Shown: piece by piece, positions 3,692 to 47,903 of the stretch
Layout: each line of letters starts with the position of its first letter
Numbering within the stretch: position 1 is the first letter of the stretch
Origin: Candidatus Woesearchaeota archaeon
GTDB lineage: Archaea > Nanobdellota > Nanobdellia > Woesearchaeales > JAGVYF01
Length of the DNA: 64,000 bases
Reading direction: 5' to 3'
NCBI GenBank assembly: GCA_041650315.1
Contig: JBAZLJ010000001.1
Location: forward strand, 280,259-344,258
Program-made: the position numbers and the translations under genes
Notes under the pieces: generated by a model
Databases searched by the model: none
What the model saw: only the letters and a program-made list of their open reading frames with translations
Told to the model about the DNA's origin: nothing

Positions 3692-5866
3692 ATGAAAGAG
3701 CAACCGAAAAAAGAGGGAGTTGATTCAAGTAGGTCTTTTTCTAGATTTTATTTCAGCAAATTGAATATTAAATTATTCATGATAGCTTTCATGTTTTTAA
3801 TTCTCGCAATATCTTCTTTTGGGATAGTCATCTATTATGTGGTCATTGATTCATTGAGTTTTCAGATACAATCTGAATTAGAATTGGCGGCCACTTTGAC
3901 TTCCAATCATGTAATAACCTATTTCGATGAAAAGACTGAGCTTATCAAGCTGATAACCAGTAGAACGCAGTTGAGGCGGGATTTGAATAATTATATTTCT
4001 GCTCCGAATCAGGATTTATACAATGAGATTGTGCTAAAACTTAAGGATTCTAAAGGGTCGATTGAGGAAATACAAAATCTTTGCTTCATCAATATGGGAG
4101 GCATTGTAGATGCCTGCAGTGATAATAGTATCACCGGAACTGATTTTTCTCAAGAAAGATTTTTTTCACAAGGCAAAATTTCAGAAGGCAGTTATTTCTT
4201 TAAAAATTCAGGCAATTGGAATATTGTGATTTCCGGTCCGATATATGAAAATAATCAGATATTGGGCGTCGTAATAGTAGTGTATGGTTTGCAAGAGCTT
4301 GGTGATATCATCACAGAAAGAGCTGGATTAGGGGAGACTGGTGAAGTATTGATTGCATTCAATGATAATAATGGGCAGACCATATATCCTTTGCCAAGGC
4401 GTTTTGAGAATGATGCGGTATCTATGAATTTTGTGGGATTACCGATGCAAGCTGCTCTAAATAAAGAATCTACTTTTTTTAAGAAAACCTATGATTACAG
4501 GGATGTGCAGGTGATTGCGGCTACTAAATATATTGACAGCGTTAAATTAGGATTGGTATCAAAAATAGATTATGCTGAAGCCATTCTGCCGGTACGTGAC
4601 AGACTTATTATTCTTTTCGTCAGAGTTAGCTTAATCTTAGTTCTGGTCTTGACATTGCTTTTCTTTTTAATATCTCTACGTATAATTAAACCTATACATG
4701 AGTTGATATCCGCTGCTGAAAGGTTGAAGAACAATGATTTCAAAGTTCATTTGAATATCAAGACTGATGATGAGCTTGAGCAGTTAGCGGGGACTTTTAA
4801 TACTACTGCAGAGATACTTGATAATCTTGAGAATGAAAGAAAACAGATTGATAAGGCGAAGACTGAGTTCTTGTCAATCACGTCGCATGAATTGCGAAGT
4901 CCGATGACGCCGATGAGGGCGCAATTGCAAATGGTGCTCGGTGATTATTTCGGGAAACTTAATGCTGAACAGAGGAATGCGCTTGAGATTGTGCTGAACA
5001 ATACTGAACGTCTTGACAAGATAATCGTCGATTTCCTTGAGATCTCGCGTATTGAGGCTGCTCGTTTGAAATTCAATTTCGTGAAAGCTGATTTAACTAA
5101 AATGATAAATCTTGTTGTTGAAGAAGTTAAATCATTTATGCCTGAGAAGAAACTTCGGATTGAGTTGGATGTCGGCAGATTGCCCATTATTGAATGCGAT
5201 CCTGACCGTGTATCACAAGTACTGCGTAATCTTTTGACAAATTCTATTAAATTCTCGCATCAGAACGGGCGTGTTTTAGTGTCTGTGAAGCACACAGATG
5301 GAATGATTCAGTTTAGCGTGAAAGATGAGGGTGTAGGCATATCCGAGAAAGATCAGAAGCATCTTTTCGAGCCGTTCTTCCAAGTCGAGAATATGTATCA
5401 GCATAAATCCGGCGGTACTGGTCTAGGGCTTGCTATCTGTAAGGGCATTGTAGAGAGTCAGAACGGGAGGATTTGGCTTGTTTCTCAAGAAGGCAAAGGA
5501 ACTGTTTTTAATTTCACTGTGCCGTTGAAACCAGTGCATGAGATTAAGGCCATAAAGATTTTGTTCTCGAACGGACAGAAGACGGATGAGCTCGTCAAAA
5601 ATTTATTTATTGAATATATCGGGCCATTAGGTGAACGTGAATTCGAGGAATTGCAGAAAAGCAAAGGGATTACTTATGAATCTGTGCATCAATATATATC
5701 GGATTTAGCCAAGAAAGGAATACTTATGAAAGAGAATTCCGAAGAATTTAAAAGCAAGATTGCTATGGTATTTGGCAGAGAAGAAAAAGAGGTTAAGAAA
5801 TTGAAAAAGAAAGAGAGATTGACTTTGCCTCAACAGGAGGTAGCTGAGTTTTTCAGCAAAAACTAA
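3692..5866 (+). CDS. Sensor histidine kinase: N-terminal TM, extracytoplasmic Cache-like sensor, second TM, HAMP, HisKA (H-box ITSHELRSP), HATPase_c (GGTGLGLAICKGIVE), plus an extra C-terminal ~115 aa module
   Basis: H-box SHELRSPMTPM. N-box LRNLLTNSIKFS. G-boxes DEGVGI and GGTGLGL. Two TM segments flank a ~270 aa periplasmic-type domain. The ORF is open from 3620 (MWMRANN...) but ATG 3692 (MKEQPKKEG) avoids overlap with the upstream gene. Confidence 0.85.
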   Translation: MKEQPKKEGVDSSRSFSRFYFSKLNIKLFMIAFMFLILAISSFGIVIYYVVIDSLSFQIQSELELAATLTSNHVITYFDEKTELIKLITSRTQLRRDLNNYISAPNQDLYNEIVLKLKDSKGSIEEIQNLCFINMGGIVDACSDNSITGTDFSQERFFSQGKISEGSYFFKNSGNWNIVISGPIYENNQILGVVIVVYGLQELGDIITERAGLGETGEVLIAFNDNNGQTIYPLPRRFENDAVSMNFVGLPMQAALNKESTFFKKTYDYRDVQVIAATKYIDSVKLGLVSKIDYAEAILPVRDRLIILFVRVSLILVLVLTLLFFLISLRIIKPIHELISAAERLKNNDFKVHLNIKTDDELEQLAGTFNTTAEILDNLENERKQIDKAKTEFLSITSHELRSPMTPMRAQLQMVLGDYFGKLNAEQRNALEIVLNNTERLDKIIVDFLEISRIEAARLKFNFVKADLTKMINLVVEEVKSFMPEKKLRIELDVGRLPIIECDPDRVSQVLRNLLTNSIKFSHQNGRVLVSVKHTDGMIQFSVKDEGVGISEKDQKHLFEPFFQVENMYQHKSGGTGLGLAICKGIVESQNGRIWLVSQEGKGTVFNFTVPLKPVHEIKAIKILFSNGQKTDELVKNLFIEYIGPLGEREFEELQKSKGITYESVHQYISDLAKKGILMKENSEEFKSKIAMVFGREEKEVKKLKKKERLTLPQQEVAEFFSKN

Positions 5867-6618
5867 TGGCAGAATTATCATTATATTTAGCTAATCTAAC
5901 AGGTATATTCTCTATAATCACAGCTATACTAGGGATACGCCTTATTCTGGCTATTCTTTCTAAGAAGAAGAGTCCTATCCAAAGAACAATTCATATCATA
6001 TTTGGATTATTAGTGATAAGTTTTATATCATGGGCTTCAGCTGAGACGATATGGGCAATTTTATCTATTATGGGAATAGATCCGGCATTCGGAATTGCCG
6101 AATACTTTTATTTATTCGGTTATTTATGCTCCGCAATAGCTTTAATCTATTTCGCTAAAATAAATCTTTCCCATTCAGCTTTTGAAGAGATTTTCTCAGT
6201 TTCTGTAATCGGTGGCTTGTTCATATTATTCGCGTTATTCTCAGTAAACTTTGTAGTCTCGGGTTATGTGGAGAAATTGCCGGCATTAGAGATGTTTCTA
6301 AGCTATTTTTATCCAATAGGTAGCGCTATTTTATTTGCGCTTTCTTCAACTGTGTATATTTTCTTTCGTAAGATAAAAATTATTGAGATACCATTGATTC
6401 TCATAGCTGCGGGATACATATTCAATTTTGTAGGGGATCTTGGATATACATATTATTCATTGAGAGAAATTTATGGCACAATAGGCATAATTTCAGATAT
6501 TTGTTTTATGATTCAATATCTTTTAGTAGCTAAGGCATTCTGCTTATTAATATCATCATTATCAAATGGAAATTGCGGATTCAATATAAAATCAAAGACT
6601 AAAAATGAAACAGAATGA
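5866..6618 (+). CDS. Hypothetical 7-TM integral membrane protein (possible sensor-associated membrane module)
   Basis: 250 aa and almost entirely hydrophobic helices. Start overlaps the kinase stop; its own stop overlaps the next gene's start. Confidence 0.4.
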   Translation: MAELSLYLANLTGIFSIITAILGIRLILAILSKKKSPIQRTIHIIFGLLVISFISWASAETIWAILSIMGIDPAFGIAEYFYLFGYLCSAIALIYFAKINLSHSAFEEIFSVSVIGGLFILFALFSVNFVVSGYVEKLPALEMFLSYFYPIGSAILFALSSTVYIFFRKIKIIEIPLILIAAGYIFNFVGDLGYTYYSLREIYGTIGIISDICFMIQYLLVAKAFCLLISSLSNGNCGFNIKSKTKNETE

Positions 6619-25904: not shown

Positions 25905-26063
25905 ATGGCAACATTCACAGTGTCAATACCTGAAGATCTAAAGAAACAGATAGATATGCACCCAGAGATAAATTGGGCGGAATACCTTAAGCAAAGATTT
26001 GAATTACGCCTTAATGAGCTTCATAGATTCGAACAGATGAAAGCTTCAGGGGGACTGAAATGA
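25905..26063 (+). CDS. Small ribbon-helix-helix protein (52 aa; not in the supplied ORF track)
   Basis: MATFTVSIPEDLKKQIDMH... has the classic RHH N-terminal strand. The stop overlaps the next start (ATGA). Confidence 0.45.
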   Translation: MATFTVSIPEDLKKQIDMHPEINWAEYLKQRFELRLNELHRFEQMKASGGLK

Positions 26064-26347
26064 CTTCTTTGACATTATCTCTTTCTGAAGAAATGAAAAA
26101 TCAGTTGAAAGCCTATTCTTGGGTAAATTGGAGCGAGATTGCTAGGGAAGAAGCTTTGAAGAAGTTGATATTCGAGAATTATCTCAAAGCGGGAACAATC
26201 ACTGATGAAGAATGGGAATTCTGCGAAAAAATGGATTGGCATCCTACTGATGAACTTCCGTTGAAAAAAGAGTTTGCTGACAAGTTGAAATCCGTCAGAA
26301 AAGAAAAATCTATTAAAGTCAAGTCAGTTTCCAACATATTCAAATGA
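26060..26347 (+). CDS. Putative antitoxin (RHH-like N-terminus) of a RelE/ParE toxin-antitoxin pair
   Basis: MTSLTLSLSEEMKNQLK... Its 3' end overlaps the toxin start (ATGA at 26344). Confidence 0.5.
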   Translation: MTSLTLSLSEEMKNQLKAYSWVNWSEIAREEALKKLIFENYLKAGTITDEEWEFCEKMDWHPTDELPLKKEFADKLKSVRKEKSIKVKSVSNIFK

Positions 26348-26613
26348 ATTATGCATTGGAAATAAAACCTTCTTGCCAGGATCAAATTCGTAAATTGTGC
26401 AGGAAGAATGCTTCTTTTGAACTAATCTTGAAGAAAAAGATTGAAGAGATATTATCTGATCCATATCATTTCAAGCCGTTGAGGTATGGTCTTGCTGGAG
26501 AAAGAAGGGTGCATATCATGAAAAGTTTTGTTCTTAAATATGAAATTGATGAGTCTAGAAAGATAGTCACTTTGCTGTTCTTCGGACATCATGATGATGC
26601 TTATCAGAGATAA
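26344..26613 (+). CDS. RelE/ParE-family type II toxin
   Basis: KPLRYGLAGERRVHIMKSFVLKYEIDESRKIVTLLFFGHHDDAY matches the RelE/ParE consensus (L.G.L.G.R..HI...YRiiY.id....i.iL.igHR.d.Y). Confidence 0.7.
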   Translation: MNYALEIKPSCQDQIRKLCRKNASFELILKKKIEEILSDPYHFKPLRYGLAGERRVHIMKSFVLKYEIDESRKIVTLLFFGHHDDAYQR

Positions 26614-35566: not shown

Positions 35567-36403
35567 ATGGCTAAAGGAAAATCTATAGGAGTGATAGCTA
35601 TAAAAGGCGGTGTTGGAAAGACTACTACTGTAGTAAGTCTAGGCGCGATTCTAGCGAATGATTACAAACAGAAAGTGCTTCTTATCGACGCGAATCTATC
35701 GGCGCCTAATCTAGGTATGCATTTGGGAATCGGTAAACCTAAAGGCACTCTCAAAGATGTTCTTTTAGATAAGATATCGATTAAAGATGCTTTATTCAAG
35801 CACGAGCTTGGTTTTGATGTATTGCCTTCTGTGTTCACTTCAAATGCTGAAAGGTTCAGTGTATACAAACTTAAAGAGAAGTTGGACGCGATTCGTAGTA
35901 AATATGATTATGTCTTGATTGATTCTTCACCTAATCTCAATAATGAGATGCTTTTGTCGATGGCTGCGTCCGATGAATTGGTTGTTGTTACTACCCCTGA
36001 CAATCCTACTTTAATGTGCACAATTGAAGCGGTCGAAGCGGCTAAAAAACAGAATACGCCTATCAAAGGTCTTATCATCAATAAAAGACGTGGAAAATCA
36101 TTTGAAGTTTCCCAGGAGACTATTGAGAATCTGGCTAAAGTTCCTATATTAGGCGTATTGCCTGATGATATTAATATATTGAAAGCACTATCTGAAGGAA
36201 CGCCGGTATCTAATTATTCAAGAAGGGCTAAAATATCTAATCTTTATCGTGGTATAGCCGAGAATGTGATGGGCAGCGATTTTCAGAAACCGCTTACCAT
36301 AAGCAGACGTTTTAAGAATTTCTTTGGCCAGTTCGTTAGCGTTGAAGCTGAAGATTCTGCTGAACCTAAACCGGTTGCTGCGGATAAACCAATCTTACCA
36401 TAA
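35567..36403 (+). CDS. MinD/ParA-family P-loop ATPase
   Basis: Deviant Walker A KGGVGKTT. Walker B DSSPN/LIDS region. 278 aa with a C-terminal extension. Confidence 0.8.
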   Translation: MAKGKSIGVIAIKGGVGKTTTVVSLGAILANDYKQKVLLIDANLSAPNLGMHLGIGKPKGTLKDVLLDKISIKDALFKHELGFDVLPSVFTSNAERFSVYKLKEKLDAIRSKYDYVLIDSSPNLNNEMLLSMAASDELVVVTTPDNPTLMCTIEAVEAAKKQNTPIKGLIINKRRGKSFEVSQETIENLAKVPILGVLPDDINILKALSEGTPVSNYSRRAKISNLYRGIAENVMGSDFQKPLTISRRFKNFFGQFVSVEAEDSAEPKPVAADKPILP

Positions 36404-36420
36404 TTATCTTATATCTAAAC

Positions 36421-36840
36421 ATGGCATTATTCAAGAAAAATAAAACTGCGCCAGTTATCCAGTCTCAGATACAGCAACTTAGTTTGAAACCTCAGGATCA
36501 ACTGAAATTGCTGCAGAAAAGGGTTGATGTTCTTCAGTCTTCGAATATACAGTTGAGCACGCATATAGGCGAGACTGAACTTAATGCGGAAGGCGAAATC
36601 ACAAGGATACAGATGTTGATGAATAAAATACAGGGCGAAATGGATGAAATCAACCGCAGGATTGATCATATTTCCGGCAATATGGGTTCTTTGATATTCC
36701 AGTTGAATCTCACTGCGAAAGCTGAAGAGCTTGACAGGTTCAAATCAGATATGGATAGAATGCAGCCGTTCAATTTCATGACTCTGAATCAGTTCGAGAA
36801 GTTAGTGAAAGAGATTGTTGACGAGAAGTTCGGCGAATAA
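36421..36840 (+). CDS. Coiled-coil protein (candidate partner of the MinD/ParA ATPase)
   Basis: 139 aa with heptad-like amphipathic repeats throughout. Lies 18 bp downstream of the ATPase gene. Confidence 0.4.
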   Translation: MALFKKNKTAPVIQSQIQQLSLKPQDQLKLLQKRVDVLQSSNIQLSTHIGETELNAEGEITRIQMLMNKIQGEMDEINRRIDHISGNMGSLIFQLNLTAKAEELDRFKSDMDRMQPFNFMTLNQFEKLVKEIVDEKFGE

Positions 36841-39072: not shown

Positions 39073-40758
39073 CTATGGTGTACCGCAACCGCCGGCTGGA
39101 GCTTCAGATGTGCTCAATGTGCTTGTGCATCCGCTTAGACCGGGATTAGCTTCGCAATAGGTTTGCTTGATGGTGTTAGCATCGAAACCGCCGAATTGTT
39201 TCTGATTGTTAGCTATCCATGTAGGACTGCCGCCAATATTCAATTCTTGCGCAATCTTGATGTCTTCGCTCAGCAATGCTTTGCCTTCATCGCCTTTAGA
39301 GCAAGTTTCTACTTTTGTGGAATCTATGCTAGCTGCTAATGCGCAGTCTTTCCAATCTAAGTCTTTCACGCCATTAGTAGATCTGCAATAGATGAAATTA
39401 AGCCATTTTTCTTGTGATGCGTATTTATTAACGCATAATTGGACAATATCTTCATCAACTTCGTATTGGCCGTGTAAGCTTTGGAATTCTCCATTCTGTT
39501 CATTAGCTATGTAATGGACACTGTATTTGACGTCTTCTTTGAAGTTTGTGACTACTTCTTTCAATGCTTTAACTGCTTCTTTTCCGTAAGGGCAGTCGCT
39601 CATCACGAACAATTGAAGGTCTTTCTTGATTTCTTCTCTGCATTCGAATGCGTCATTGCACTCAGTGTCTGCGCAGTCAATAAGTTCGTTATTGTTGTCA
39701 TCCACTTCGTTGTCGCAGATTTCTTTAGTTGGATCGAAGCTTGCTCCAATCATCAAATTAAGATATTTGCCTGATGGGACGAAATATCTTTCGATGTTCA
39801 CATAATTAGCATCTGTCTTGACTTCTTCAGTGAAAAGGATAGCTGGCAATGCTGTCAATTGTAGTTCATTGTATAACGCTTTACCTTCTTCGGTTGAATA
39901 ATCAAGGTTTGTAACTGCGAGTTTTGGGAATAGTTGATTTTTCAATGATTGAATGATTGGCGCTGAATCACATTCTTTGCATCTTGCGTCATTCAATACT
40001 GTGATCTTCACTTCTTTGATCTCAGGCAATTCTGCGCATGCTGGGGCTTTGTTGCCTGTTGCTTCGCAGATTGCTCTTATTAGATCATTTGGTGCTCTTC
40101 CACCAGCATATTGCACGCCGTTCAAATAGATTGTAGGGCTGCCTTGGACATTGAGAGATTGAGCTTTCTGGAATGATGCTGCGAGCAATGCTTTGCCTTC
40201 TTCGCCTTGGTAGCAAGTTTCCAATGTTTTTGAATCAATGCCTATTTCATCAGCGCATGTTGTCAATGATGAGACTAAATCACTTGGATTGTTTTTGTTT
40301 TGGCATGCTATAAAATCGAAATATACTGCTGGATAATGGTTTTTTGCACAAGCTTGTATCAAATCGCCTATGACTTCTGGTTCTCCATGAAGGCTGTTGA
40401 AATTCGTTCCATCAGTCTGGCCAATGAATTCTATGTTCATATTGACATAGCCTTTCATCTTGTCAACAACTTCTTTGAATGAGTTTTCTGCCTGCACCCC
40501 ATAAGGACATTGGCTCATGACATAAAGGTCGATATTAGCTTTATCACTTACTGTTGCGAATCCGGTTATTCCGTCTAAAAGATTAGGATAATTAGAATTG
40601 ACTACATATCCGATTGCGAAAACAACTGCTACGATTACTAGAAGTTTCTTATAATCGAAATTGCTTGCTTTTTGTTCAACCTTTGCTTCGACATTGATGA
40701 AAGCAGGTTTCACTTCCGGTTTTGCCGGTTCTGGATTTGCTTGTTGTTCCATTTCCAT
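39073..40758 (-). CDS. Membrane-anchored protein with two tandem GILT-like (thiol-reductase-like) domains carrying non-canonical active-site motifs
   Basis: N-terminal TM LLVIVAVVFAIGYVV. Each ~220-aa repeat has CPYG (where GILT has CxxC) and [FI]xSLHG[EQ]xEV (where GILT has CQHGxxEC), plus the GILT-like hY[IV]a/GQ..G block. About 25 Cys in total. Confidence 0.45.
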   Translation of the reverse strand: MEMEQQANPEPAKPEVKPAFINVEAKVEQKASNFDYKKLLVIVAVVFAIGYVVNSNYPNLLDGITGFATVSDKANIDLYVMSQCPYGVQAENSFKEVVDKMKGYVNMNIEFIGQTDGTNFNSLHGEPEVIGDLIQACAKNHYPAVYFDFIACQNKNNPSDLVSSLTTCADEIGIDSKTLETCYQGEEGKALLAASFQKAQSLNVQGSPTIYLNGVQYAGGRAPNDLIRAICEATGNKAPACAELPEIKEVKITVLNDARCKECDSAPIIQSLKNQLFPKLAVTNLDYSTEEGKALYNELQLTALPAILFTEEVKTDANYVNIERYFVPSGKYLNLMIGASFDPTKEICDNEVDDNNNELIDCADTECNDAFECREEIKKDLQLFVMSDCPYGKEAVKALKEVVTNFKEDVKYSVHYIANEQNGEFQSLHGQYEVDEDIVQLCVNKYASQEKWLNFIYCRSTNGVKDLDWKDCALAASIDSTKVETCSKGDEGKALLSEDIKIAQELNIGGSPTWIANNQKQFGGFDANTIKQTYCEANPGLSGCTSTLSTSEAPAGGCGTP

Positions 40759-42569: not shown

Positions 42570-43337
42570 TTGAATCAGGCTTGTTTTGTTTTTTCATTGC
42601 AAAGCTTTTTATATCAATATTATTTAGATAAGGACATGAATAGATTATTTTTGTATCTGGCAATGTTCTTTGTTTTGACTTCATTAGTTTCGGCAGCAAC
42701 TGTTCATGGCTCAGTCTATGACCTTTCTCTTGAGAAAGTCAGCGATGTTAGGATGTCGGTTAATTCTGCTCCTGCGCAGACTTTGATATCTAAGGATGGG
42801 GCTTATTCATTTGAATTGCCATCAGGCGAATATATTTTGAAGGCGGAATATTATGAAAATAGAATTTTAATATCTACTGCTGAAGAGTCTGTGAAAATTG
42901 GTTCTGACGGGAATTATGTGATTGATTTAGTCTTATTTCCAGTGCTTGAGGAAGAAATCGATGATGTTGAAGTCCCTGATGAATTGAATGGTGATTCATA
43001 TTGGTATTATTATGCGCCGTTAATTATTTTTGTGCTGGTTTTGATTTATTTACGTTATCGCAAATTGCAGATTAGAAAATTGAAGATCATGAAACTTGAA
43101 GAGGCAAGGCATGTCGCGCATATCAAACCTTCTGTTGCCGTTGATCCTGAGCTTGAGAAGCTGTTGGATTTCATCAAATCGAATGAAGGACGAGTGACGC
43201 AGAAAGATGTGCGCAAAGCTTATCCTTCTTTGTCTGAAGCTAAAATCTCTCTTATGGTCGCTGAATTGGAGCATAAAGGGATAGTCAATAAAATAAAAAA
43301 GGGAAGAGGTAATCTCATATGGTTAAGAAAACATTAA
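42570..43337 (+). CDS. Membrane-anchored winged-helix transcription regulator: signal/anchor, extracytoplasmic beta-sandwich (CarboxypepD_reg-like) domain, TM, cytoplasmic wHTH
   Basis: Probable start is the internal MNRLFLYLAMFFVLTSLVSA. GSVYDLSLEKVSDVRMSVNS... is beta-rich. TM YYYAPLIIFVLVLIYL is followed by a basic stretch. The C-terminus LLDFIKSNEGRVTQKDVRKAYPSLSEAKISLMVAELEHKGIV is MarR/TrmB-like wHTH. Confidence 0.5.
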   Translation: MNQACFVFSLQSFLYQYYLDKDMNRLFLYLAMFFVLTSLVSAATVHGSVYDLSLEKVSDVRMSVNSAPAQTLISKDGAYSFELPSGEYILKAEYYENRILISTAEESVKIGSDGNYVIDLVLFPVLEEEIDDVEVPDELNGDSYWYYYAPLIIFVLVLIYLRYRKLQIRKLKIMKLEEARHVAHIKPSVAVDPELEKLLDFIKSNEGRVTQKDVRKAYPSLSEAKISLMVAELEHKGIVNKIKKGRGNLIWLRKH

Positions 43338-46140: not shown

Positions 46141-47238
46141 TTACTTGGCGCCGATGAATTTGAGTATCTCGTTTTCAAGATAATCGAAGACGCTTTCTTT
46201 CTTTTTCATTGGAGTTGGTCTGGTAAATTCCAATTCAGGCACTTGCGGGACTGGTTCAGGCAGGTCTATCCTCATATCATCTGGTTCCTGCGTTATGTCC
46301 GGCAGTTCTAATGTATTAGGAATATGATGCTTCTGTTCCATTGGTCTTGGCGCTTCCATCATAGGGAATGATTCCGGAAGTTCTCCGATTGTTTCGAATT
46401 TGATTGGTTCTATGTTCATGTTCTTCCTGCTTTCATATTTCAGAGCCATCTCATTGAATTTGTTCTTCAATGCTGTGATCTTTTCGATTAATGGTTTAAG
46501 CCTTCTTTGGCTGTGCTTGCTCTGCATCTTTATGAGTTTCATCTCGAACATCTTTATGGTCTTGTCGAGCTCTTTCATCTTATCTTTGTGTGCTTCCATT
46601 TTCTCATTCTCTTCAGCTACTTTTATCGCGATCAATTGATTAAGCTTGTCCTGCATCTGGGCAAGCGAGTTCTGCATAGTATCGACCCTTTTGTCTTTAG
46701 CCATGATTGGCTCTATTTTTTTAACTACTTCTAATGTAGGTCTGATTATCTCTTTCTTGATTATGACTGGGCTTCTGTGCTTGAGCTCTTTGAGTTCATC
46801 TGCTAATGCCTCTATTTTATCTTCTTGCTCTTCGTTGATGGATTCTTGTTCCTCTTCCCATTCTTCATCTTCTTTCACTTTACTTTCGATGTTGTTAACT
46901 TCTGAGAACAGGTCGTAGATACGTTTTTCATCTTTGCTGAGCTCTTTTTTAGTCTCATCAATTTTATTATCAGTCTCTTTTACTCTCGTATTAAGCAGAT
47001 TAAGAGCTTCTTTCTCTTTAGTCTCTACGATTATCTTAGGCATCATCGGTTGGAAATCGTCCTTGAATTTCCTGATTGTATCGCCTATATCAGAATGCTG
47101 TTTCGGTCCAGGCATATCGGTCATATGCGGTCTTTCTGTTTTTTTTATCTCAGGCATTTTCGGTTGTAAGTCTTCCTGTTTCAATCTCTTGAAATGTAGA
47201 AGTAATCTCCTGACTTTCCGAGGATGCAGTTCAGCCAT
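46141..47238 (-). CDS. Coiled-coil protein, paralog A (C-terminal motif EAPRPME...KKKESVFDYL)
   Basis: 365 aa. K/E-rich heptads. Pro/Met-rich termini. Shares the C-terminal motif with the adjacent gene. Confidence 0.4.
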   Translation of the reverse strand: MAELHPRKVRRLLLHFKRLKQEDLQPKMPEIKKTERPHMTDMPGPKQHSDIGDTIRKFKDDFQPMMPKIIVETKEKEALNLLNTRVKETDNKIDETKKELSKDEKRIYDLFSEVNNIESKVKEDEEWEEEQESINEEQEDKIEALADELKELKHRSPVIIKKEIIRPTLEVVKKIEPIMAKDKRVDTMQNSLAQMQDKLNQLIAIKVAEENEKMEAHKDKMKELDKTIKMFEMKLIKMQSKHSQRRLKPLIEKITALKNKFNEMALKYESRKNMNIEPIKFETIGELPESFPMMEAPRPMEQKHHIPNTLELPDITQEPDDMRIDLPEPVPQVPELEFTRPTPMKKKESVFDYLENEILKFIGAK

Positions 47239-47240
47239 TT

Positions 47241-47786
47241 TTATTTGAATAATTCAGAGAAGCTTTTCTTCTTTTTCTCAGGTAATCTTGGCGGAGGCGG
47301 CATTGGCGCTCCTGTCAATGGTTTTGATTCCATTGGTCTTGGTGCTGAGAAACTTGGCGGTGGCATAGGCGAAAAACTCTGTTTCGGCATATCAAAGCTC
47401 ATCTGCGGCTTTGATGAGGCGCCCATATTGCCTACCATTCTTTTGATGTATGGAATGTCACTATTCAGCATGTTCGCTACTGCGATTATGCCTTTTGCGA
47501 TCTTTTCATTTTGCTCTACTACCTGATCAAGTTTGTCTTGAATAGGTTTTAATTCTTTTATGAATAATTCTTCTTCTCTTTCTTCAAGTTTCATCTCTTC
47601 AGTTGCTTCTTCGAATGTCTGTGTGAAATCTTGGAGCGTTGTCGCTAACTTCTCCATAGTGTCCATGACATTCTCTGGACTTGCTTTCTTCTTAGAAACA
47701 GCTGTTTTTGTGAGTTTTAACGCTTCGATCTCTCTTTTCAGAGCATCAAGCTTCTCGAAAGGTAATGCTTCTTCATCTTTAGCCAT
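47241..47786 (-). CDS. Coiled-coil protein, paralog B (C-terminal motif SAPRPME...KKKKSFSELF)
   Basis: 181 aa. Helical N-terminal two thirds, then a Pro-rich tail PMPPPSFSAPRPMESKP...PMPPPPRLPEKKKKSFSELFK. Lies 2 bp from paralog A. Confidence 0.4.
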   Translation of the reverse strand: MAKDEEALPFEKLDALKREIEALKLTKTAVSKKKASPENVMDTMEKLATTLQDFTQTFEEATEEMKLEEREEELFIKELKPIQDKLDQVVEQNEKIAKGIIAVANMLNSDIPYIKRMVGNMGASSKPQMSFDMPKQSFSPMPPPSFSAPRPMESKPLTGAPMPPPPRLPEKKKKSFSELFK

Positions 47787-47903
47787 GATATCACCGCTTT
47801 TTTTGATTATTATAAATATAAATTATCCTAATACTATATGGAATTAGCGATTTTAGTATTTATATATGTTTTGGTGGGTTTATATAGAACGAGTATTGAA
47901 ATC

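Follow-up and report, generated by a model that had tools for sequence, protein, structure and literature searches.

What do two adjacent genes of an uncultivated archaeon encode when both are annotated as 'hypothetical protein' at NCBI and both specify highly charged helical proteins? DPANN genomes are of about 1 Mb, and many of the genes conserved in them lack a functional assignment. The genes that we call A and B, from a Candidatus Woesearchaeota (DPANN) metagenome-assembled genome (MAG), are one such case. The two open reading frames (ORFs) are located on a 1.0-Mb contig, within a stretch of 64 kb that was analysed as a whole (hereafter the window; coordinates of all features are given in Table 1). 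A first-pass annotation made from the sequence of the window had described their products as paralogous, K/E-rich coiled-coil proteins sharing a nearly identical terminal motif, and had suggested that they could be a filament-forming, membrane-remodelling duo. We report here that A and B constitute a real, conserved and uncharacterised two-gene module of Woesearchaeota and Nanoarchaeota, and that the two proteins are homologous neither to each other nor to known families. With moderate confidence, we propose that the module is a bicistronic, membrane-tethered, hetero-oligomeric coiled-coil scaffold specific to these lineages, which would contact the membrane through MinD-like C-terminal peptides.

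Genes A and B form a conserved pair

Both ORFs are real and are read from the minus strand, with 2 nt between the stop codon of A and the ATG of B, as read directly from the sequence. Related loci were collected both through individual homologs (six loci) and from one-genome-per-species contigs (50 loci), and each of them has one A gene. In essentially all of the ~50 related loci, a B-type gene lies directly downstream of A on the same strand, mostly at a spacing that goes from a 4-nt overlap to 10 nt. Two loci seemed to depart from this arrangement: in L034 the contig ends, and in L025 the B gene bears one in-frame stop. The L025 homolog (5520-6080(+)) is intact save for this codon, for which a sequencing error, a pseudogene or recoding are possible. 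The wider neighbours vary among loci, the A-B pair being the constant part. Three neighbours recur, a convergent histone-fold-like gene (34/49 loci), a Glu/Gln-tRNA-synthetase-like gene (26/49) and a thermosome gene upstream (19/49), and none of them is in the same operon as A and B. FtsZ is encoded less than 4 kb from the pair in 1 of 50 loci, and no FtsZ is present in the 64-kb window. The organism titles of these loci are Woesearchaeota, Nanoarchaeota or 'archaeon', except for third-party annotation (TPA) bins titled 'Methanosarcinales'. Thirteen species-representative MAGs with the pair carry the title 'uncultured Methanosarcinales archaeon' (L012, L014, L020, L022, L027, L036, L037, L043, L047, L052 and L057-L059), one MAG with a 'Methanosarcinales' title being a 0.77-Mb 'chromosome' (OZ246410.1); these titles look like a wrong taxonomy for DPANN bins.

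The A family is large. A word-indexed search yielded 28 relatives of A, and an exhaustive profile search reached 1291 clusters (defined at 50% identity) at E <= 1e-3, with at least 883 at E <= 1e-10 and 197 at E <= 1e-30; motifs were counted in 171 representatives. The best 150 matches are 132-308 aa in length. Comparison of A with Pfam, NCBIfam, PHROG and PDB sequences gave no significant family match, only generic coiled-coil noise. The pair as a whole is unassigned in Pfam, NCBIfam and PHROGs, and the orthologs that we encountered were named in their sources either 'hypothetical protein' or, generically, 'chromosome segregation ATPase'. The AlphaFold2 model of A (28 input sequences, pLDDT, the predicted local distance difference test, of 70.6) comprises a short helix and a single continuous helix, followed by 60 disordered residues. 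Ahead of the helix, 151 of the 171 representatives have an acidic-aromatic motif, [DE][YF]x-h-h-P (DDYELMP type), which is degenerate in the A proteins of the window clade (EEALPFEK), where the Tyr is lost. The helical core contains two heptad segments (residues 38-73 and 82-111) that flank an invariant Pro81; its family-wide pattern is F.EA.EEMKLEE...L.P...EQNEKIAKGI(I/V)A(V/I)ADM, and it ends in EQNEKIAKGIIAVADM. The linker that separates this core from the C-terminal tail is 21-179 aa long in the family (median 65 aa), with a median Pro content of 30%. In the L051-L058 clade, whose B proteins are short (~140 aa), the A linker has a conserved KPLP(S/T)YN(L/M)P right before a KKKGF.NFK tail.

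B-type proteins are 100-412 aa long. Forty-nine of them fall into a single phmmer cluster, and the clade of the window B consists of 4 sequences. The other B proteins were out of reach of a jackhmmer search seeded only with the B protein of the window, and profile-profile comparison and motifs were needed: hhalign joined the window clade to the main B family with a probability of 93.8% (E 1.8e-7), and both have the N-terminal helix motif hHPxxhRRFhxHL, kept across B proteins, as well as a '(S/G)KHS..L..h..I' turn. Residues 183-272 of the window B align with the C-terminal '(S/G)KHSKxDLxRVKxxIDxHK' of the family. The AlphaFold2 model of B (4 input sequences, pLDDT 67.6) has, besides the helices listed in Table 1, a helix at residues 52-61, and is disordered over residues 273-349, ahead of a terminal helix. 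The N-terminal helix is amphipathic, with a hydrophobic moment of 0.68 and a net charge of +7. A start of the EDYxEL..P type, akin to the DDYELMP motif of A, was observed in the B proteins of L022, L024, L030, L031, L034, L035, L036, L043, L045 and L050; it seems that the non-homologous A and B share or exchange short terminal motifs.

The description of the two proteins as K/E-rich and long-helical agrees with both their composition (K 13%, E 12% and P 10.5% in A; K 14.5% and E 14% in B) and the AlphaFold2 models. In a crude heptad test, A scored above shuffled sequences (0.82 versus 0.55) and B was marginal. The Pro/Met-rich C-terminal regions are also present in both proteins, and are disordered. 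By contrast, the proposed paralogy did not hold. BLASTP aligned A and B over a patch of 12 residues only (E 0.03), and hhalign between the A family and the B family gave a probability of 2.3% over 19 columns; paralogy was rejected on the basis of these two comparisons.

The nearly identical terminal motif fared better, in part. The hexapeptide APRPME is exactly common to A (residues 148-153, 47328-47345) and B (residues 296-301, 46336-46353), both proteins end with a Lys cluster and then F/L, and KK..F..L is conserved within each family. The near-identity was nevertheless overstated, as most orthologs do not have APRPME: among those of A only the closest retains it, in the form APRPPME (one residue inserted), and no B ortholog does. 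Sharing of the hexapeptide arose by chance in 15 of 2000 whole-protein shuffles and in 7 of 5000 shuffles restricted to the tails, and the two coding stretches are identical at 17 of 18 nt. Although improbable by chance in this genome, APRPME is not kept in orthologs, and its status as a conserved functional motif was rejected. A micro-conversion, or a patch that is specific to the lineage and located in low-complexity linkers, is the probable explanation, and the nucleotide identity may reflect a small gene-conversion or duplication inside these linkers.

The C-terminal tails and the MinD comparison

No transmembrane segment was found in A or B (maximum Kyte-Doolittle 19-residue window of 1.02 and 0.42, respectively), and the hydrophilic N-termini of both show no sign of a signal peptide; both proteins would therefore be cytoplasmic and peripheral. 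Features of archaeosortase/PGF-CTERM-type sorting signals were absent from A and B, and no NCBIfam sorting-signal model matched them. The conserved element is the tail itself, with the consensus KKKG[LF]F[GS]x[FL]KK in the A family. A basic cluster and a hydrophobic pair are present in the last 16 aa of 145 of the 171 A representatives when a loose pattern is used, and a strict MinD-like pattern is matched by 60/171 A tails versus 0/411 neighbouring ORFs. Like MinD-type targeting sequences (KKGF[LF]xx[LF]F type), the tail occupies the very end of the protein, where a basic cluster leads into a short F/L-rich amphipathic stretch. The membrane-targeting helix of Bacillus subtilis MinD is KGMMAKIKSFFG (PMC13537761). 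Escherichia coli MinD ends in ...EEEKKGFLKRLFGG, and a close match is found between its EKKGFLKRLFGG and the EKKGFFKRLFKR of the A-family member P0021, the Lys cluster, the Gly and the short F/L-rich amphipathic stretch being common to both; other A tails of the MinD pattern are KKKGLFGGLFKK and EKKGFFSKFKK. In the variants KKPLFKIKF, KKGFFSLGKK and KKKWLF, charge and hydrophobicity are kept but the exact sequence is not, as expected if the tail binds lipid. Because the tail matches the MinD helix in both position and sequence pattern, it points to lipid binding and not to docking on an MIT (microtubule-interacting and transport) domain, and the docking motif resembling an MIT-interacting motif (MIM) that had been proposed here is better described as a putative MinD-type membrane-targeting peptide. 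The terminal tail does not appear to fit the MIM1 consensus.

Outside the peptide, A and B have no homology with MinD. Their peptide is carried by a Pro-rich linker (21-179 aa) and a coiled coil, whereas that of MinD is carried by a ParA/MinD ATPase fold, and no deviant Walker A P-loop ATPase was detected in A or B, neither of which matches CbiA, ParA or AAA_31. For MinD, the membrane-targeting sequence binds only weakly as a single copy, and dimerisation is required (PMC8155659). By analogy with MinD, a lone A or B tail would bind lipid weakly and stable binding would depend on oligomerisation; since A and B have no nucleotide switch, avidity would have to come from oligomerisation of the coiled coils. 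The window does contain an actual MinD/ParA-type ATPase, encoded by a separate gene (35567-36403(+)), in which a segment similar to a membrane-targeting sequence, ISRRFKNFFGQFVS, is followed by an acidic/Pro extension. The next gene (36421-36840(+)) encodes a helical protein of 139 aa that starts with MALFKKNK and has a weak UPF0158 match; the two could be a separate positioning system.

The C-termini of B proteins take three forms. The first is a Pro-rich linker followed by an amphipathic peptide, as in the window clade and in L003 (KSLWEKVKGFFGFR, which resembles the B. subtilis MinD type), L008, L010, L012 and L059 (GSFLKRLFRVRR). A PK-rich polybasic tail, found at ~8-9 loci, is the second, and in the third nothing follows the coiled coil. 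The presence of A tails and that of B tails showed no complementarity across the loci. In the 4 orthologs of the window clade, the B tail is conserved as KK(P/K)GFFxY(L/V)xxEVKKF(I/L). The predicted helix in the B tail and the equivalent or polybasic PK-rich tails of other B proteins argue for membrane targeting by these peptides.

Several observations weigh against a membrane scaffold of this kind. The third form of B C-terminus is that of the majority (~32 of ~50 B proteins). The tails are short and their hydrophobic moments unremarkable (0.2-0.5), and the core of the window B tail is net acidic (-2), which makes it less membrane-like than those of its orthologs. About 15% of the A representatives do not have the canonical tail motif, many of these being variants or seemingly truncated. 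A protein-docking peptide could just as well account for the G-[LF]-F-[GS] consensus, which is fairly sharp. What connects the B clade of the window with the main B family is short motifs and an hhalign score that is biased by coiled-coil composition and may be inflated. Finally, binding of A to B is itself putative.

With these reservations, the scaffold would work as follows. A and B would most likely be non-homologous, cytoplasmic helical subunits that assemble into a hetero-oligomer on the inner face of the membrane. The peptide at the very C-terminus would attach to the membrane through its Lys cluster and then its short, F/L-rich amphipathic stretch, and the flexible Pro-rich linker would keep this peptide away from the coiled-coil body. 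Oligomerisation would provide the avidity for stable binding, and in the window clade the B tail would add a second anchor. Candidate contacts, with each other or with a client, are the basic helix at the N-terminus of B and the acidic-aromatic motif at that of A, which is degenerate here. In the A-B module, a membrane-binding principle that is already known may have found a new protein chassis, and the occurrence of one short lipid-binding peptide, putative here, on unrelated chassis would be an example of motif convergence or transfer. The combination of a MinD-type tail, a flexible leash and terminal motifs makes two hypothetical proteins testable candidates for a membrane scaffold. How these uncultivated symbionts organise their membrane, divide or attach to a host is poorly understood, and the module could be part of the apparatus involved. 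A bolder version, which we offer tentatively and regard as rather doubtful, is that A and B build a two-component membrane skeleton of Woesearchaeota/Nanoarchaeota, a hetero-oligomeric coiled-coil lattice anchored beneath the membrane by MinD-like peptides on long Pro-rich leashes, in which terminal motifs (of the acidic-aromatic DDYELMP and LELPD types) would recruit a division, envelope or host-contact client and would apparently have moved between subunits across lineages.

ESCRT-III, PspA and other candidate systems

The profile and structure comparisons with Snf7/ESCRT-III and PspA/Vipp1 called for by the first-pass annotation were run, and no relationship was found. Neither Snf7 (PF03357) nor PspA_IM30 (PF04012) was matched by A or B in Pfam at E <= 1, where only generic coiled-coil families appeared. 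PDB profile searches, using alignments of 28 A and 48 B sequences, gave no ESCRT-III, PspA or Vipp1 chain among all 18 A matches and the best 60 of the 468 B matches; designed coiled coils, dynactin and crescentin were the matches listed. The hhalign probability against E. coli PspA was 0.5% for A and 0.4% for B. Foldseek against the PDB returned 0 matches for A and only generic helical matches (E > 0.7) for B, with no ESCRT-III at E < 3; Vipp1 (6zvr) was at rank 42 with E 3.3 and a probability of 0.20. In the AlphaFold2 models, the ESCRT-III core fold (alpha1-alpha2 hairpin, alpha3-alpha4 and alpha5) is not apparent, as A is predicted to have one short and one long helix rather than five, and B has a different layout, although monomer models are weak evidence where coiled coils are concerned. 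In addition, the putative membrane element of A and B is at the C-terminus past a long linker and not in an N-terminal helix, and these superfamilies often are paralogous sets, which A and B are not. No classical AAA domain was detected in the 64-kb window by phmmer with the AAA module of E. coli FtsH. At the level of sequence and fold, an ESCRT-III/PspA relationship was rejected, as Pfam, PDB-sequence profiles, hhalign to PspA and Foldseek were all negative, and we consider a filament pair whose C-terminal motif docks an MIT-domain AAA ATPase to be very improbable indeed, even though A and B are helical, charged and probably membrane-associated, like the members of these superfamilies, and the Pro-rich DLPEPVP.VP segment of the B clade is loosely MIM2-like. 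What stands of the proposed duo is a conserved, tightly coupled pair with conserved tails, for which a membrane-related role is plausible; the ESCRT-III/PspA-like model is not supported. Prefoldin, V/A-ATPase stalk, SNARE-like and sortase-signal identities were also rejected, as none of them was among the Pfam or NCBIfam matches at E <= 1 and the long Pro-rich linkers misfit.

If the KKKG[LF]FG..KK tail instead docks a protein, such as a cytoskeletal polymer, a chaperone or a hub, A and B would be adaptors that bring one partner to a scaffold. The L/F-F-G/S positions are indeed fairly sharply conserved (Phe at position 2 in 98/135), the motif terminates a long disordered linker as many short linear motifs do, and in 19 of the 49 loci, as in the window, the pair is preceded by a thermosome gene of the same orientation. 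However, lipid binding through this very pattern is established for MinD, tail variants keep charge and hydrophobicity but not sequence, polybasic tails replace the motif in some B proteins, and the thermosome gene is outside the A-B operon, with other or opposite-strand genes between; we consider docking unlikely. Less probable still is a nucleoid-associated or chromosome-organising complex, perhaps a tether in which B would bind DNA through its basic N-terminal helix and polybasic tails, and A would bind the membrane through its tail. The PK-rich tails of the ~8-9 B proteins resemble those of histone H1 and HU, the B N-terminal helix is strongly basic, the convergent small histone-fold-like gene lies beside B in most loci, and an ortholog is listed in one source as 'chromosome segregation ATPase', a generic coiled-coil label. 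Nevertheless, Pfam and NCBIfam reveal no DNA-binding domain or ATPase in A or B, binding to anionic lipids is another property of polybasic tails, the histone-fold gene converges on B without being co-transcribed and is missing from the window, and the window B tail is amphipathic rather than polybasic.

DPANN-specific coiled-coil proteins (CCPs), one or two per genome, have been described in cluster 2 DPANN, including Woesearchaeota, at loci that include type IV pilus genes, one of which ('Locus 1') has a chaperonin gene (Hamm et al. 2024, PMC11291902). A or B might be among these CCPs, for which that study proposed a role in symbiont-host cell contact together with type IV pilus-like machinery. 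The thermosome gene near A and B in the window and in 19/49 loci parallels the Locus 1 chaperonin, and the adjacency raises the possibility that the CCPs include A or B. The CCP loci were, however, chosen by type IV pilus adjacency and the proteins read as surface or attachment factors, whereas no CpaF, TadC or pilin is found among the neighbours of A and B that were covered (ten ORFs of the window, the recurrent neighbour clusters with most members and, at six loci, precomputed Pfam matches), and the tails of A and B point to the cytoplasmic face and not to the cell surface. We regard this identity as improbable, to about the same degree as the nucleoid complex.

Known systems share design features with the membrane scaffold that we favour. 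In ZipA, SepF and FtsA, and in Mycoplasma FtsZ with an amphipathic helix of its own, a membrane anchor or amphipathic helix is combined with a long flexible Pro/Gln-rich linker and an interaction module; this design of division-ring tethers is like that of A and B, with no sequence relationship. DivIVA/GpsB, crescentin and FilP are likewise peripheral-membrane coiled-coil scaffolds, and crescentin is among the weak generic matches of the B profile; these matches are nevertheless compositional (E ~4e-3 amid designed coiled coils), A and B have no DivIVA-type lipid-binding domain, and they differ from these scaffolds in their two-gene architecture and terminal motifs.

Feature coordinates and further observations

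The immediate neighbours of the pair in the window, all on the minus strand, are GNAT acetyltransferase and thermosome genes upstream of A and a threonyl-tRNA synthetase gene downstream of B. The spacer upstream of A, judged from its sequence, is likely the promoter and leader of the A-B unit; it includes a Shine-Dalgarno-like GGTGA element (47791-47795), 4 nt ahead of the A ATG. In the disordered part of B, the segment of residues 307-331 looks like a short linear motif despite its surroundings, and its VPxVP part is loosely MIM2-like.

Table 1. Features of the A-B locus (window coordinates) and examples of the histone-fold-like gene (coordinates of the respective loci).
Feature	Coordinates	Strand	Remarks
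Gene A	47241-47786	(-)	181 aa, WC471_01675, member of a large unannotated family
Gene B	46141-47238	(-)	365 aa, WC471_01670, fast-evolving coiled-coil partner of A
AT-rich spacer upstream of A	47787-47903	(-)	117 nt, TATA-like runs
A N-terminal helix, residues 11-29	47700-47756	(-)	AlphaFold2
A helical core, residues 37-120	47427-47678	(-)	AlphaFold2, heptad test, invariant columns
A family signature EQNEKIAKGIIAVANM, residues 91-106	47469-47516	(-)	within the helical core
A Pro/Met-rich disordered linker, residues 121-170	47277-47426	(-)	pLDDT ~47-64 (10-residue block means), no secondary structure
A C-terminal tail KKKKSFSELFK, residues 171-181	47244-47276	(-)	candidate amphipathic peptide for membrane targeting, MinD-type
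B N-terminal basic amphipathic helix LHPRKVRRLLLHFKRLKQEDL, residues 4-24	47167-47229	(-)	AlphaFold2 helix 6-24
B long helix/coiled coil 1, residues 74-154	46777-47019	(-)	pLDDT 87-91 (block means, 81-150); heptads 73-127
B helices, residues 183-239 and 244-272	46423-46692	(-)	interrupted by the SKHS turn, which is conserved
B Pro/acidic disordered linker, residues 273-344	46207-46422	(-)	pLDDT <55
B segment P..LELPDI..E......DLPEP.P, residues 307-331	46246-46320	(-)	invariant in the 4 orthologs of the clade
B C-terminal tail KKKESVFDYLENEILKFIGAK, residues 345-365	46144-46206	(-)	AlphaFold2 helix 350-362, pLDDT ~78
Histone-fold-like gene, L003	7152-7322	(-)	
Histone-fold-like gene, L005	5227-5391	(-)	
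Histone-fold-like gene, L007	1538-1705	(-)	
Histone-fold-like gene, L009	6200-6373	(-)	
Histone-fold-like gene, L025	6078-6242	(-)	

The histone-fold-like gene, absent from this window, encodes ~55 aa and is convergent just past B in the loci that have it; its product shows weak DUF1931 and CBFD_NFYB_HMF matches and ends in ...RAEANNRKTVMAKDL. A protein with CarboxypepD_reg and DUF7343 regions adjoins threonyl-tRNA synthetase both in the window (42570-43337(+)) and in L001 (9752-10411(-)). Elsewhere in the window, 39073-40758(-) encodes a 561-aa protein with two thioredoxin-fold regions (GILT/DsbA-like matches), a noteworthy gene given that this DPANN genome is reduced, and three consecutive small ORFs at 25905-26613(+) (52, 95 and 89 aa) have, by eye, the look of an antitoxin/toxin cassette.

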